Source: a virus (lineage: Monodnaviria; Loebvirae; Hofneiviricota; Faserviricetes; Tubulavirales; Inoviridae). From it: 8,848 bases of DNA. A program made the translations under genes and the position numbers. Under the pieces are notes generated by a model. It made no database searches, was not told where the DNA came from, and saw only the letters and a program-made list of their open reading frames with translations. The stretch lies in IMG/VR virus record IMGVR_UViG_2579779034_000001. One strand, given 5' to 3'. Positions 1-8,848 of the stretch are shown piece after piece (position 1 is the first letter of the stretch; each line of letters starts with the position of its first letter).

Positions 1-32
1 ATTGGTGCGCATAATGTGCGACTCGTTATGTT
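1..32 (+). other. dif-like XerC/XerD recombination site at the left junction (hybrid attL-like)
   Basis: Positions 5-15 GGTGCGCATAA match the E. coli dif XerC arm 11/11 (dif recalled as GGTGCGCATAA-TGTATA-TTATGTTAAAT). Central 16-21 TGTGCG matches 3/6. The XerD-arm position 22-32 is degenerate (about 5/11). Confidence 0.7.
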
Positions 33-36
33 GAAA

Positions 37-69
37 AGGCCGCTGCGAAAATCGCCTCCGCAGCGGCCT
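37..69 (-). terminator. GC-rich perfect hairpin; possible terminator for the 103..1206 gene and inner stem of a folded attP
   Basis: Stem 37-47 (AGGCCGCTGCG) pairs perfectly with 59-69 (CGCAGCGGCCT), with an 11-nt loop. On the minus strand it lies just downstream of the stop of the 103..1206 gene and is followed by a short T run (plus-strand AAAA at 34-37). Confidence 0.45.
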
Positions 70-75
70 CTTTAG

Positions 76-100
76 CATAACGTCATTGTGCGAACCAATT
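76..100 (-). other. Inverted, degenerate dif-like site (attP2-like)
   Basis: Reverse complement of 76-100 is AATTGGTTCGCACAATGACGTTATG, which resembles site 1 (ATTGGTGCGCATAATGTGCGACTCGTTATG). Positions 1-16 can pair with 84-99 (14/16 Watson-Crick) and 25-30 with 76-81 (6/6). Confidence 0.45.
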
Positions 101-1206: not shown

Positions 1207-1273
1207 TTTACTTAAAATCCAGTGTTTTAACTGATCAAAGATGGTCAGATAAAATGCAAAAATTTAGTATTTG

Positions 1274-1304
1274 AATATTACCCTAGTTAACCTAGGGTAA
1301 TATT
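1274..1304. promoter_or_regulatory. Perfect 13-bp inverted repeat with 5-bp spacer (operator-like palindrome) upstream of the 367-aa cargo gene
   Basis: Arm 1274-1286 AATATTACCCTAG and arm 1292-1304 CTAGGGTAATATT are exact reverse complements; spacer TTAAC. No adjacent T tract on either strand, so an operator is more likely than a terminator. Confidence 0.5.
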
Positions 1305-1310
1305 ATATCA
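1302..1310 (-). promoter_or_regulatory. Candidate extended -10 promoter element (TGATATAAT) for the 103..1206 gene
   Basis: Minus-strand sequence TGATATAAT at plus 1302-1310 fits TGnTATAAT. Its TGA is the stop codon of the upstream 139-aa gene. The palindrome 1274-1304 covers the predicted +1 region. Confidence 0.35.
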
Positions 1311-1727
1311 ATAATATGAATTTCTTCGGTGCCACCAATAAAGTAGACCGTATCCGACGATAAGAATCCCAAAAAATATCAGAGACATTCCCCAGCCAGT
1401 TCCGTACCACGAAACCATATCATCGAAAACCAACCCACCCGTTTCACGTACTCCGGCAGCTTCCTTAAGAATTGGTTTGAATACCGGAATCAGAAGGGCG
1501 ATCGCCAGTGGGGCACCCCAGCGAACAAGACCTGTTTCCATTTTGATCCCGAAAAAGATCCCCGCACCGACAACAAGCAACCAGACTATCAGGCCAGGCG
1601 CAGTTTCCAGTGCTGTTTGCCATTCAACATCGAAAGTTTTCATTAGCCAGGCAACAACTGCCAGACAGAAAGCAAATACGCCCACGACAACCAGTTCAAC
1701 GCCGCTTGTTTCGTTATTTCTACTCAT
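1308..1727 (-). CDS. Hypothetical small integral membrane protein, 139 aa, about four TM helices
   Basis: ORF with four hydrophobic stretches. Good RBS on the minus strand (AAGGA about 8 nt before the ATG). GC about 52% in a sampled stretch, clearly higher than neighbours. The antisense ORF 1477..1767 is shorter and judged spurious. Confidence 0.65.
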   Translation of the reverse strand: MSRNNETSGVELVVVGVFAFCLAVVAWLMKTFDVEWQTALETAPGLIVWLLVVGAGIFFGIKMETGLVRWGAPLAIALLIPVFKPILKEAAGVRETGGLVFDDMVSWYGTGWGMSLIFFGILIVGYGLLYWWHRRNSYY

Positions 1728-1769: not shown

Positions 1770-1798
1770 AACGTGCAGTGTTGGTAATACTGCACGTT
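1770..1798 (-). terminator. Hairpin downstream of the 60-aa regulator gene (minus-strand terminator or attenuator)
   Basis: Perfect 10-bp stem 1770-1779 AACGTGCAGT with 1789-1798 ACTGCACGTT and a 9-nt loop. On the minus strand it is followed by CTTTATT and lies 18 nt after the stop at 1816. Confidence 0.45.
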
Positions 1799-4041: not shown

Positions 4042-5358
4042 ATGAAAAGGAAAATATTAATTCTTTCCGCTGTCCTCATTTCTCCTTTTTCACATGCTGA
4101 GTCATGGGAAAGCATTACTAAATCCACTTATCAAAGTTCTGCCTACGCTGAAAGTAAGCAAATAACCAATCAGGATGGCTCTAAGACAACGGTTTACTAT
4201 ATTGATGCTGCTATGCAGGCCTCCGCTTGTCAGGGTGCTAAATCCAGTGCTCAGAGTGTATTTACTCGGGTTAAACCAACTTATGAGGGTATCTGGCCTG
4301 ATTCTGAATTCCGTCTTGTTTTTACTGGTGATTGTACTTACAGCGATTCACCAGGGCAGAAGGATAAATATTGGTCTTTAACGGCTTATATTGTTGGTAA
4401 TATTCAGCGTTCTGTTCCTGATGAAAAACCTACTGACCCGACACCAGAAGAAATTTGTGAAGCGAAGCCGCCAGAAGAAGGTGTATTTAATAATGTTGAT
4501 TCATATGATGGTGGTCGCTATATCTACTATAACGGCTGTGAATATGAGGCTACTGGTGTCATTGTTTGTCAGGGTGATGGTACTGTTTGCGCTGCAACAT
4601 GGAAGCCTACAGGTGCTGTAGCTGACCCCTCTGATAAACCCTCAACCCCCCAAAATGGCGGTGGTGAGTCCGGTGGTGGTGAGTCCGGTGGTGGTGAGTC
4701 CGGTGGTGGTGAGTCCGGTGGTGGTGAGTCCGGTGGTGGTGAGTCTGGCGGTGGTGAGTCTGGCGGCGGTAGTTCTGGCGGTAGTTCTGGCGGTAGTTCT
4801 GGCGGTAGTTCTGGCGGTGGCTCTAGTGGTTCCAGTCTTTCTAAAGGTGATATTCAGTCTGCGATCGAAGGTGCTTCACCCAAAATAGCCAGCGATATTC
4901 ATGATAAATTAACGGAGAAAGACACTTCATCAGATGATAAAAAAAATGCCGATGAACAAACCAGGAATAATATAAATCGTCTTGACGATTCCATTAACAA
5001 TCTTACGCGGGGGGCTGGCCGTTTTGCTGACCCTTCAGGTGGTGATTCTCGTTATGGAAAGGGCGACTCTGAATTAGATGGCGCTTCTACTTTAGCTGAT
5101 TCTGAATTGGGAATTGAAAAGGATTCTCACGGTGCTTTATGGGAAGCATTTTTAAATAAAGGTGCTATGCTGCCTAATTTGCCCAATGGTAACGGCTGCT
5201 CTGATTTTATTATTTTCCCCGGAGAGGTTTATCAGATTGATATTGGTTGCGATAAATTACTGACTATTAAAGATGTTCTTTCATGGGTTTTTTATTGCCT
5301 TACTTTCTGGTATGTCTTTACTTCTTTAACTTCATTGCTTCGCAAAGGGGGTGAGTGA
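4042..5358 (+). CDS. gIII: Minor coat / adsorption protein pIII (438 aa)
   Basis: Signal peptide [19 protein letters not shown]. Cys-rich segment [26 protein letters not shown] resembles M13 N1 (YEGCLWNATGVVVCTGDETQCYGTW). Gly/Ser-rich linker. C-terminus IDIGCDKL...[17 protein letters not shown] resembles M13 (IDCDKINLFRGV...FMYVFSTFANILRNKES). First ATG after the gVIII terminator. Confidence 0.9.
4657..4836 (+). repeat. In-frame tandem repeats encoding the pIII Gly-rich linker (seven 15-bp GGGES units, then 12- and 15-bp GGSS/GGGSS units)
   Basis: Seven 15-bp units GG(C/T)GGTGGTGAGTC(C/T) from 4657 to 4761, then GGCGGCGGTAGTTCT, three GGCGGTAGTTCT units (4777-4812), and a degenerate tail to 4836. 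Confidence 0.9.
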
Positions 5359-6801: not shown

Positions 6802-8067
6802 ATGCGCTCTGTTATTGTTGCTTTTTTATTTGCCTGTTCATTCTGCGTTTCTGCTGAAACTGTTAATTTAAATAATTCATCTGTTCGCTCATTTGTTCAG
6901 TGGTATTCTTCAAAAACTGGCAAGCCTGTTATTGTTAATCCTGATATTAAAGGAAACGTAACCGTATTTAATGCTGATGTTAATCCAACAAATATTGATG
7001 ATTTCTTTAAGTCTGTTCTGAATGCTAACGGTTTTGTCATGCTTTCTGGCAATCCTGCGGTAGTCTCTTTGCCGTCTAAATTACCTTCACAGATGGTTTC
7101 GGATTCCGATGATTCTGATAACCAGTCTTATGATACTTTTCCTTCTGAGCCATCTTACCAGCCAGTACCTGTAGCGCTTACGGTCAGAAATTTTAAGCTG
7201 ACAAAAGTTAGATCGTCCGATGTTCAGCAACTGATTAAAATTTATCTTGATTCTAATGGTGGTGGTAATGTCGTGGATTATCCAGGCAATAACTCGCTGA
7301 TTGTTTCTGCGCCTGACGAGCTGCTGCCGGTTCTGTCCGATTTTATCAATTCTGTGGATGTTGCCCGCGATCAGGTTCTCATTCAGTCGCTGATGTTTGA
7401 AACCAGCTTGTCTGATGGCGTTGATTTATCGTTTGCGGCAGGTTCTGCATCCGGTCATAAGGTTGCGGGGGGCTTTAATACTTCTGCACTGGGTAGCGCT
7501 CTTTCTACGGCGGGCGGTTCTTTTGGTATTTTTGATGGTAACGTGTTGGCGCTGTCTCTGCGTGCTGTCCAGAGTAATTCACGCTCTAAGGTGATTTCAA
7601 CGCCGCGTATTCTTACTCAGTCTGGTCAGACTGGTTACATTTCCGTAGGTAAGAATGTGCCGTTTATCACCGGAAAGGTAACGGGCGAATCTGCCGGGGT
7701 AAATAATCCGTTTCAGACTATCGAGCGTCATGATGTTGGTGTTTCTCTCAAGGTAACGCCTGTTGTCATGGGTAACGGGCAACTAGTTCTGACTATCGAC
7801 ACTCGTGCTGATTCAATCAGCAATGATGATCAGGCATCCGATATTATTACTAATCAGCGCCAGATTCAGACGACAGTCCAGATTAAGGATGGTCAGACGT
7901 TGTTATTGGGGGGGCTTATCGATTCATCGTTCAGCAATGCCGAGCGTTCAGTTCCAGTTATAAGTAAAATTCCTCTTATAGGCTGGATTTTCAGTAGCAA
8001 GGCAGACAGCAATGAACAGCGTATTATGTATATTTTGCTTACAGCACATATCATTCGTCCACTTTGA
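6802..8067 (+). CDS. gIV: Secretin pIV (outer-membrane export channel), 421 aa
   Basis: Signal peptide MRSVIVAFLFACSFCVSA. Strong secretin-domain similarity to M13 pIV (for example SVGKNVPFITGKVTGESAGVNNPFQTIER vs SVGQNVPFITGRVTGESANVNNPFQTIER, DGQTLLLGGL, SKIPLIG). RBS AGGAG. The upstream ATG at 6709 would overlap gI and lacks a signal peptide. Confidence 0.95.
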   Translation: MRSVIVAFLFACSFCVSAETVNLNNSSVRSFVQWYSSKTGKPVIVNPDIKGNVTVFNADVNPTNIDDFFKSVLNANGFVMLSGNPAVVSLPSKLPSQMVSDSDDSDNQSYDTFPSEPSYQPVPVALTVRNFKLTKVRSSDVQQLIKIYLDSNGGGNVVDYPGNNSLIVSAPDELLPVLSDFINSVDVARDQVLIQSLMFETSLSDGVDLSFAAGSASGHKVAGGFNTSALGSALSTAGGSFGIFDGNVLALSLRAVQSNSRSKVISTPRILTQSGQTGYISVGKNVPFITGKVTGESAGVNNPFQTIERHDVGVSLKVTPVVMGNGQLVLTIDTRADSISNDDQASDIITNQRQIQTTVQIKDGQTLLLGGLIDSSFSNAERSVPVISKIPLIGWIFSSKADSNEQRIMYILLTAHIIRPL

Positions 8068-8110
8068 TGGATAGCGGGTAGGTGCGTGAGCCCTGCTCGC
8101 TATCCATCAA
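8064..8110 (+). other. Large hairpin immediately after gIV; candidate packaging signal and/or terminator
   Basis: Perfect 13-bp inverted repeat 8064-8076 TTGATGGATAGCG with 8098-8110 CGCTATCCATCAA, 21-nt loop, overlapping the gIV stop. The Ff packaging signal hairpin lies at this position. No T tract follows. Confidence 0.45.
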
Positions 8111-8136
8111 ATGGACATTATTGATTGGGGTAACTA

Positions 8137-8831: not shown

Positions 8832-8848
8832 ATTGGTGCGCATAATGT
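8832..8848 (+). other. Start of the right-junction dif site (XerC arm), truncated by the window end
   Basis: ATTGGTGCGCATAATGT is identical to 1-17. GGTGCGCATAA-TGT is the beginning of the canonical dif core. Confidence 0.7.

Follow-up and report, generated by a model that had tools for sequence, protein, structure and literature searches.

In the window, i.e. the whole 8,848-nt stretch of DNA analysed here, a perfect inverted repeat follows the last conserved leftward gene of a filamentous prophage, and the reading tentatively favoured for it is that of a nucleic-acid stem-loop, this phage's version of a hairpin (HP1) found in its relatives, which would serve as a transcription-boundary hairpin at the end of a leftward regulatory unit and not as a protein operator. 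The palindrome is most likely a fairly ordinary boundary element, because it is most likely the phage's own copy of the stem-loop that related filamentous phages carry after the same stop codon. What points to a boundary stem-loop is the position of the repeat, the covariation of the hairpin among relatives, the match to a covariance model, the compensating differences in the stem, the pattern of spacer lengths, the hairpins that precede homologues of the adjacent cargo gene, the presence of a hairpin after each leftward gene of the window, and the independence of the palindrome from immunity type. Counting against this reading are the departure from a canonical terminator, the borderline E-values, the GUUAA loop, the missing HP2 and HP3 hairpins, the fact that a hairpin is not universal at this junction, and a close cargo homologue (at locus L009) that lacks the palindrome; so, too, does the perfect extended -10 motif adjoining the palindrome, since an operator would be expected in just the place, about -9 to +22, that the repeat would occupy. 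As a prophage boundary stem-loop, the palindrome would by itself be of modest importance. It also points to a conserved three-hairpin element that is common to phage If1, many prophages and hundreds of plasmids.

The prophage and its leftward genes

The window consists of a filamentous prophage of 8.8 kb that is inserted at the dif site of Escherichia coli. Its first and last 17 bases are identical, and this repeat, ATTGGTGCGCATAATGT, carries the XerC-side arm of E. coli dif. The left end of the window (positions 4-36) reads GGTGCGCATAA, 11 nt and then TTATGTTGAAA, the last being XerD-arm-like with a long spacer, and in related E. coli genomes (L003, L004 and L007) the left end of the prophage adjoins hipBA. 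E. coli AZ184 has a prophage that matches the entire window at 100 % identity and is present there in two tandem copies; the flank to the left of the window copy is the second copy of the prophage, and in one of the two the secretin gene is interrupted by ISEcp1 (L001, 14817-17743). Annotated genes include those for a II/X-family replication protein, an ssDNA-binding protein, coat proteins, an attachment protein, a Zot-like assembly protein and a secretin. Within the attachment protein gene (4627-4830), tandem repeats of 15 nt and 12 nt give rise to Gly/Ser-rich linkers (GGGES and GGSS), and the annotated length of this protein varies among copies of the phage. Directly after the secretin gene (gene IV) lies a 20-bp imperfect hairpin (8063-8111), which as DNA has a folding energy of -24.5 kcal/mol (z -8.9).

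Three genes of the window are read leftward, i.e. the 60-aa gene, the 139-aa membrane protein gene and the 367-aa gene, and each of them is followed by a hairpin (Table 1). The first of these hairpins, with a stem of 10-13 bp, looks like a partial terminator; the second is the palindrome; and the third, whose arms occupy 24-47 and 59-82 and which as RNA reaches -37 kcal/mol, closes the leftward unit. The segment at 27-97 matches hundreds of E. coli plasmids with 87-95 % identity, and in at least one of these plasmids it forms the end of a cassette made up of an ISNCY transposase pseudogene, the three-hairpin element and a gene of the STM4504 family. The 60-aa gene and the rep gene diverge, and the region that separates them contains three direct repeats with TGAACTCA (2042-2053, 2066-2077 and 2113-2124), which are probable binding sites for a regulator or an initiator.

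Table 1. Positions of the palindrome, the neighbouring features and the related elements (window coordinates unless a locus is named)
Feature	Position	Strand	Remark
Direct repeat of 17 bp, ATTGGTGCGCATAATGT	1-17	+	Same sequence at 8832-8848; ends of the prophage
Strong terminator-type hairpin followed by UUUUC	24-82	-	After the cargo gene, beside the dif-like end
Cargo gene of 367 aa	103-1206	-	phrog_17621
Spacer between hairpin and cargo ATG	1207-1273	-	Contains a weak alternative promoter candidate
HP1 covariance-model match	1273-1302	-	7-bp core ACCCUAG/CUAGGGU plus 3' flank UAAUAUUC; models R1 and R2
Perfect 13+13 inverted repeat with 5-nt spacer	1274-1304	either	The palindrome
TGATATAAT, candidate extended -10 without -35	1302-1310	-	Scored as -10 plus TG
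Membrane protein gene of 139 aa	1308-1727	-	phrog_4174; last conserved leftward backbone gene
Hairpin with U-rich tail (CUUUAUU)	1770-1798	-	Between the 60-aa and 139-aa genes
Gene of 60 aa	1816-1998	-	phrog_2503; repressor candidate of the preliminary description
Three-hairpin element, copies in other loci	L004 4265-4325; L007 4800-4865; L049 about 1390-1450; L174 (If1) 1501-1559		

Geometry of the palindrome and the adjoining promoter motif

The palindrome consists of AATATTACCCTAG (1274-1286), the spacer TTAAC (1287-1291) and CTAGGGTAATATT (1292-1304), with pairing at 13 of 13 positions of the arms, and a stem-loop is possible in either strand. No other short-loop hairpin of the window is as long, and a stem of at least 13 bp was seen in only one of 500 first-order Markov shuffles of the window. 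Folded as minus-strand RNA, the repeat reaches -17.9 kcal/mol (z -4.8), a value equalled in 0 of 200 shuffles, and folded as plus-strand DNA it reaches -10.8 kcal/mol (z -4.5). G-C pairs make up only four of the 13 pairs of the stem, the base of which is all A-U. The palindrome starts 3 nt past the stop codon of the 139-aa gene and, because the cargo ATG is at 1206, lies 68-98 nt upstream of the 367-aa gene. The preliminary description, which had placed a perfect 13+13 bp inverted repeat some 70-100 bp before that gene and had it overlap a minus-strand TGATATAAT whose TGA is also the stop codon of the upstream membrane protein gene, is thus borne out in its geometry. The window has seven CTAG tetranucleotides, two of them inside the palindrome (at 1283 and 1292), and the repeat holds restriction sites for HpaI (GTTAAC), AvrII (CCTAGG) and, twice, SspI (AATATT). 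Among 18 E. coli records the palindrome is invariant in all 18, and the flanking spacer has two polymorphic sites, a comparison of weak statistical power; because the repeat is identical in all of these copies, they allow no within-family test of pairing.

The TGATATAAT motif is read from 1310 to 1302 on the minus strand, sharing its last 3 nt with the repeat and its TGA (1310-1308) with the end of the 139-aa gene. In a simple position-weight scan it has the top score for a -10 plus TG in the window, but it has no -35, and the one occurrence of TGNTATAAT in the window is at chance level (0.65 expected; at least one in 95 of 200 shuffles), such that only its position and orientation are notable. 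A cargo-gene promoter at TGATATAAT, as predicted from the motif, is plausible. From the usual 7-nt spacing, we take its start site to be near 1293-1295, i.e. inside the 5' arm of the hairpin, and the repeat would then cover about -9 to +22 of the candidate promoter. An alternative candidate, which combines a -35 (TTAACT) in the hairpin loop with a -10 (TAAATT) at 1266-1261, is weaker.

A stem-loop after the same stop codon in related phages

In related phages, a stem-loop begins 4-5 nt past the stop codon of the same 139-aa gene, having the form AAACCGTGG-GAAA-CCACGGTTT in L042 and L019 and CCGCGG-GAAA-CCACGG in L004, L043 and L045. When the junctions are aligned, the palindrome is in register with the short GAAA-loop hairpins of L004 and L019. 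The stems of HP1 differ by compensating changes, as in CCGTGG/CCACGG, CCCCGG/CCGGGG, GTACGG/CCGTAC, GTATGG/CCATAC and GTGCGG/CCGCAC. Across 16 distinct variants, with the window left out, 90 % of cells are paired vs 23-39 % in slid controls; five of the seven pairs change on both sides, and this covariation score was reached by 0 of 500 shuffles. Compensatory stem changes were likewise seen in a smaller set of eight sequences.

Two covariance models (R1 and R2) built without the window both gave the palindrome, on the gene-sense strand, as the top match in the window, at 12.7 bits for R1 (E 0.09) and at 14.1 bits for R2 (E 0.045, with seven of seven pairs standard), these E-values being borderline and only roughly calibrated. 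The same site on the plus strand scored 8.8 bits, the next match in the window 9.4 bits, and the best chance matches in 57 kb of other loci at most 11 bits. The match gains independent support because it is located exactly where HP1 of the relatives lies, a few nucleotides past the same stop. Compared with the HP1 consensus, the window has two compensating pair changes (G-C to C-G and G-C to A-U), a 3' flank (GGTAATATTC) that resembles that of the family (GGTAAAGTTC), and a stem lengthened to 13 bp by outer A-U pairs. The GAAA tetraloop of HP1 (rarely GAAT or AAAA) is absent from the palindrome, in which the loop is the 5-nt GUUAA. A view of the palindrome as wholly part of the cargo module was revised once the alignment and the model searches had identified its core with the HP1 hairpin. 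Since pairing is kept among differing stems and the palindrome matches the model, the pattern is the signature of selection on pairing and not on a protein recognition sequence. Wobble pairs in HP1, by our own count roughly six G.U vs five A.C, have no strand bias; the RNA and DNA levels, and with them the strand of action, are therefore indistinguishable by this means.

In relatives, HP1 opens an element of approximately 60 nt, in which its GAAA-looped stem of 6-7 bp is followed by TAAAG, HP2 (GTTCGGGTGTCACAGAACCCCGAAC) and HP3 (CCGCTTCGCGG); 26 distinct copies of the element were collected in L004-L172. The stem of HP1 covaries, whereas HP2 and HP3 are near-invariant across very divergent inoviruses, which suggests another role for these two hairpins. 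In the major intergenic region of phage If1 (NC_001954.1, 5052-5110) the element is identical at 59 of 59 positions. In every contig where it could be placed, it has the same sense as the small regulator gene (of the 60-aa or the HTH type) and runs opposite to the structural genes, and it sits shortly past either the small regulator gene or the 139-aa gene. Homologues of the 60-aa gene are located just upstream of the element in many inoviruses, including If1. The genome of If1 (L174; NC_001954.1) contains within its major intergenic region, at about 1300-1490 of L174 and opposite to all annotated genes, an unannotated ORF for a clear homologue of the 60-aa protein of the window (MATPKRTTMAIVAERKLKLERLAIDASHTAGRAITWTDIVNHLIDNYAKDTEKDLIHTTKSSE) that stops 13 nt before the three-hairpin element; the idea of If1 as a case in which no gene has the sense of the element is ruled out by this hidden gene just upstream.

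In most copies, a U-rich tract lies downstream of HP1 when the element is taken in the viral sense, a feature reminiscent of an intrinsic terminator for the convergent structural operon. The element as a whole could act in terminating convergent transcription, as an origin for the complementary strand, or both; a literature search on the complementary-strand origins of If1 or I2-2 turned up nothing usable. Among 5,426 complete E. coli genomes, 689 contain the element, often on a plasmid; it has no Rfam family, a search of Rfam with the window and its relatives having returned no match at E-values up to 1. Because the plasmid copies are located in a remnant of the same cargo cassette, they provide no independent evidence on function, and their use as independent proof of a priming signal is ruled out. 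In the window, HP2 has no match at up to three mismatches and HP3 is also missing; the HP1-only state recurs in L042.

The cargo gene and the variable slot

In prophages related to the window at dif, the 139-aa gene is kept and the genes beyond it differ, and the variable slot starts past the 139-aa stop. Here, the slot is occupied by the 367-aa gene. The structure model of its product (pLDDT 82) has two transmembrane helices and two beta-sandwich domains and matches generic beta-sandwich folds only, and the protein has no match in PADLOC, Pfam or NCBIfam. This region of the window is AT-rich, with 27-34 % G+C vs about 40-49 % nearby. The phrog_17621 family is also cargo at the same prophage end in filamentous prophages of Providencia and Morganella and in several uncultured viral contigs; homologues occur in Enterobacter, Proteus and Pseudomonas as well, and the gene is often preceded by a small gene of 63-76 aa. 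The same 367-aa gene, together with the palindrome, is found 98 % identical on a different, CUS-1-like backbone that carries a 148-aa HTH gene. One record with the same cargo, L008 (NZ_CP128883.1; 9,565 bp, circular), is listed as an untypable plasmid of E. coli TUM14759 and is a complete CUS-1-like phage genome, probably the episomal replicative form; the chromosome of TUM14759 also carries copies.

Hairpins, though of unrelated sequence, also lie upstream of the cargo homologues in Enterobacter, Providencia, Morganella and other inoviruses, and three of these hairpins (L010, L012 and L013) have the T-runs typical of terminators. The closest cargo homologue outside E. coli (L009, 75 % identity) has no such palindrome. 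A conserved regulatory site linked to the cargo gene is ruled out by this homologue and by the unrelated hairpins of the distant ones.

A comparison of the sequence past the 139-aa stop in 26 loci distinguished about 12 types of junction, which occur in L002-L004, L008 and L031-L052. Several cargo genes are operon-coupled, because they start 20-30 nt past the 139-aa stop with only a ribosome-binding site in between. In the empty-slot junction (L049/L050), the 139-aa gene leads straight into the terminator hairpin and the dif-like site that correspond to positions 24-82 of the window. Across the junctions, the type of cargo is freely reassorted with the type of immunity (60-aa or HTH). Four junction types (those of the window, L042, L043 and L045) have a spacer of at least 100 nt and, directly past the stop, a strong hairpin (-15.6 to -18.1 kcal/mol); in the types with a spacer of 20-67 nt the hairpin is weak or there is none, and in seven of the 11 cargo-bearing types it is absent or degenerate. 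Hence, the slot shows two modes of cargo insertion, in which the gene is either fused into the leftward operon or placed behind a hairpin and a long spacer, where it may have a promoter of its own. The mode of insertion bears on the timing of cargo expression in lysogens of extra-intestinal pathogenic strains.

How a boundary hairpin might act

If the palindrome is a boundary stem-loop, the leftward regulatory unit would be composed of the 60-aa gene and the 139-aa gene, and the palindrome would mark its end. The hairpin would form in transcripts that read through from this unit and could thereby bring about a pause, weak termination or protection of the 3' end, separating the backbone unit from the cargo gene beyond in the manner of a boundary or insulator. 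As regards intrinsic termination, a stable stem-loop is present shortly past a stop codon, but a G+C-rich stem base with an immediate U-tract is lacking on both sides, where the tail reads CAAAUACU along the gene sense and AUAUCAAU along the opposite strand. Nor is the palindrome among the results of a consensus terminator scan, and a canonical terminator is thereby ruled out. Since the repeat falls short of a canonical terminator in both directions, its effect would presumably be to terminate transcription weakly, to make the polymerase pause or to shield the 3' end. Should TGATATAAT be an active promoter, transcripts of the cargo gene would start inside the 5' arm, would not contain the complete hairpin and would therefore escape its effect.

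Alternative explanations

The palindrome might also be a relic without present function, i.e. what remained of the three-hairpin element when HP2 and HP3 were lost upon acquisition of the cargo gene, with the 13 bp arising from template switching and the -10 being accidental. The lack of HP2 and HP3 in the window is in keeping with such a history, as are the junctions of the L002 type, in which the same element is decaying, the outer arms (AATATT), which are a few substitutions from the flanks of the family (AAAAATA and TAAAGTT), and the chance-level frequency of TGNTATAAT; in E. coli, the perfection of quasi-palindromes by template switching is well documented. However, two separate HP1-only junctions, those of the window and L042, keep intact stems of 13 bp and 9 bp, and their cargo genes are only 29 % identical, with no similarity evident by eye in the rest of the spacer. 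Furthermore, the stem of the palindrome is longer and more stable than that of any relative, which is the opposite of decay, and the repeat is invariant in the E. coli records against the two polymorphisms of the flanking spacer, for what a comparison of that power can convey. A functionless remnant is an unlikely explanation.

According to the preliminary description, the palindrome is the operator of a dimeric repressor. The repeat would be bound by a dimeric DNA-binding protein, encoded by the host or by some other element, which would block RNA polymerase at TGATATAAT and so switch the cargo gene. The perfect dyad is suitably placed for this, overlapping the candidate core promoter by 3 nt of TGATATAAT and extending over the start region of the best extended -10 in the window. 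Dimer operators are typically about as long as its 19-bp core (ACCCTAG-N5-CTAGGGT). The palindrome also has 9 nt (CTAGTTAAC) in common with the E. coli trp operator, from which it nevertheless departs in a right half shifted by 1 bp and in differing flanking contact bases. To our knowledge, none of the TrpR, Fur, FNR, ArgR or GntR-type sites fits the palindrome. What argues against an operator is the want of a partner and of further sites. The cargo module encodes a membrane protein only and no regulator. The 60-aa ORF, which had been put forward as the repressor, is decoupled from the palindrome in both directions. In a tblastn survey of all collected loci, the palindrome accompanies both the 60-aa backbone (window and L001) and the unrelated 148-aa HTH backbone (L008 and L023-L025), and it is missing from at least six loci whose 60-aa gene is identical (L004, L032, L033, L036, L040 and L045) and from two with diverged 60-aa homologues (L020 and L051). 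The 60-aa protein has no match in Pfam or the PDB, and the control region of its own gene carries different repeats, the three copies of TGAACTCA, which are unrelated to the palindrome. Taken together, this pattern of co-occurrence and these repeats rule out the 60-aa ORF as its repressor. The operator interpretation thus has partial support only, as the promoter motif stands and the proposed repressor does not.

A half-site search within the window found no second site or half-site beyond chance. No further copy of the 47-nt segment around the palindrome exists in the phage collection, and the only one among the plasmids searched is the episomal copy of the same element. The 19-nt core has one exact match each in species-representative genomes and in viral contigs, both in unrelated contexts (one of them a Bacillaceae terminator) and consistent with chance. 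Relatives, for their part, keep pairing and not a recognition sequence at this position, and their stems change in a compensatory fashion. Moreover, perfect pairing at 13 of 13 positions goes beyond what a protein site needs. The failure of the half-site to recur and the conservation of pairing in relatives thus speak against a dimeric-repressor operator, which we regard as rather unlikely; the variant with a host factor has the right geometry and neither a partner nor a second site, and it is just as doubtful.

A more comprehensive reading, which as a whole appears improbable, would join the boundary hairpin to the parent element. The three-hairpin element would then be a widespread and as yet uncharacterized cis-element, in which HP1 ends convergent transcription and HP2 and HP3 prime the complementary strand, and the palindrome would be a minimal, stem-extended derivative of it fused to an extended -10. 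In read-through from the regulatory unit, the hairpin would form and bring transcription to a stop or a pause, and cargo transcripts would begin in the 5' arm and escape. If this were true, expression of the cargo gene would be independent of the phage's own regulation.

Quite improbable, finally, is a role of the hairpin in the packaged plus strand, where it might serve to prime the complementary strand, to replicate the genome or to package it: phage particles carry the genome as ssDNA, the repeat also folds stably as DNA, the parent element is within the major intergenic region of If1 (the region that in Ff phages holds the origins and the packaging signal), and the near-invariance of HP2 and HP3 across divergent inoviruses suggests recognition by host machinery, but the window and the CUS-1-like episome L008 are entirely without HP2 and HP3, the duplex -35/-10 of ssDNA promoters cannot be recreated by a stem of 13 bp, and the palindrome lies approximately 2 kb from the end of gene IV, past the dif-like junction and the cargo gene. 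Because close relatives with the same backbone (L031, L048 and L051) have no hairpin at the junction, the hairpin cannot be essential, and an essential ssDNA role is unlikely. In Ff phages, the position after gene IV is that of the gene IV terminator and the packaging signal, and the much stronger hairpin at 8063-8111, right after gene IV, would appear to fit a packaging signal better than the palindrome does.

Comparison with known systems

Variable ORFs adjacent to attL have been reported for CUS-1 of E. coli K1 and YpfPhi of Yersinia pestis (PMC4266046), and these phages are like the window in genome type and in having a variable slot beside the dif-side end. YpfPhi has an RstR-like HTH gene (PMC4266046), as does the backbone of L008; in contrast, the backbone of the window has the 60-aa gene in place of the HTH gene, as well as other structural genes, and the hairpin is not described in the review of these phages (PMC4266046).

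Intrinsic terminators, which are often bidirectional, share with the palindrome a stem-loop right past a stop codon and self-complementary A/U-rich flanks, whereas the palindrome has no uninterrupted U-tract in either direction and has a stem base of A-U pairs. The REP elements, as exemplified by malE-malF, are intercistronic hairpins that stabilize mRNA; a REP-like hairpin could block 3' exonucleases and uncouple the expression of the upstream and downstream genes. Like hairpins of the REP type, the palindrome is stable, has no U-tract and lies between two cistrons of a possible operon, although it is single-copy and not a REP sequence. The operators of TrpR or of toxin-antitoxin systems resemble it in being a perfect dyad over the -10/+1 region; unlike such operators, the palindrome is a single site without a known cognate regulator, at which relatives conserve pairing.

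The nearest counterpart is HP1 of the If1 type. Here, the loop is GAAA, whereas that of the window is GUUAA, and the stem of the window is extended to 13 bp by A-U pairs and is not followed by HP2 and HP3. Nonetheless, the two hairpins have the same orientation, lie a few nucleotides past the stop of a leftward backbone gene, and have in common a 7-bp stem with an ACC...GGU base and the 3' flank GGTAA.(A/G)TTC.
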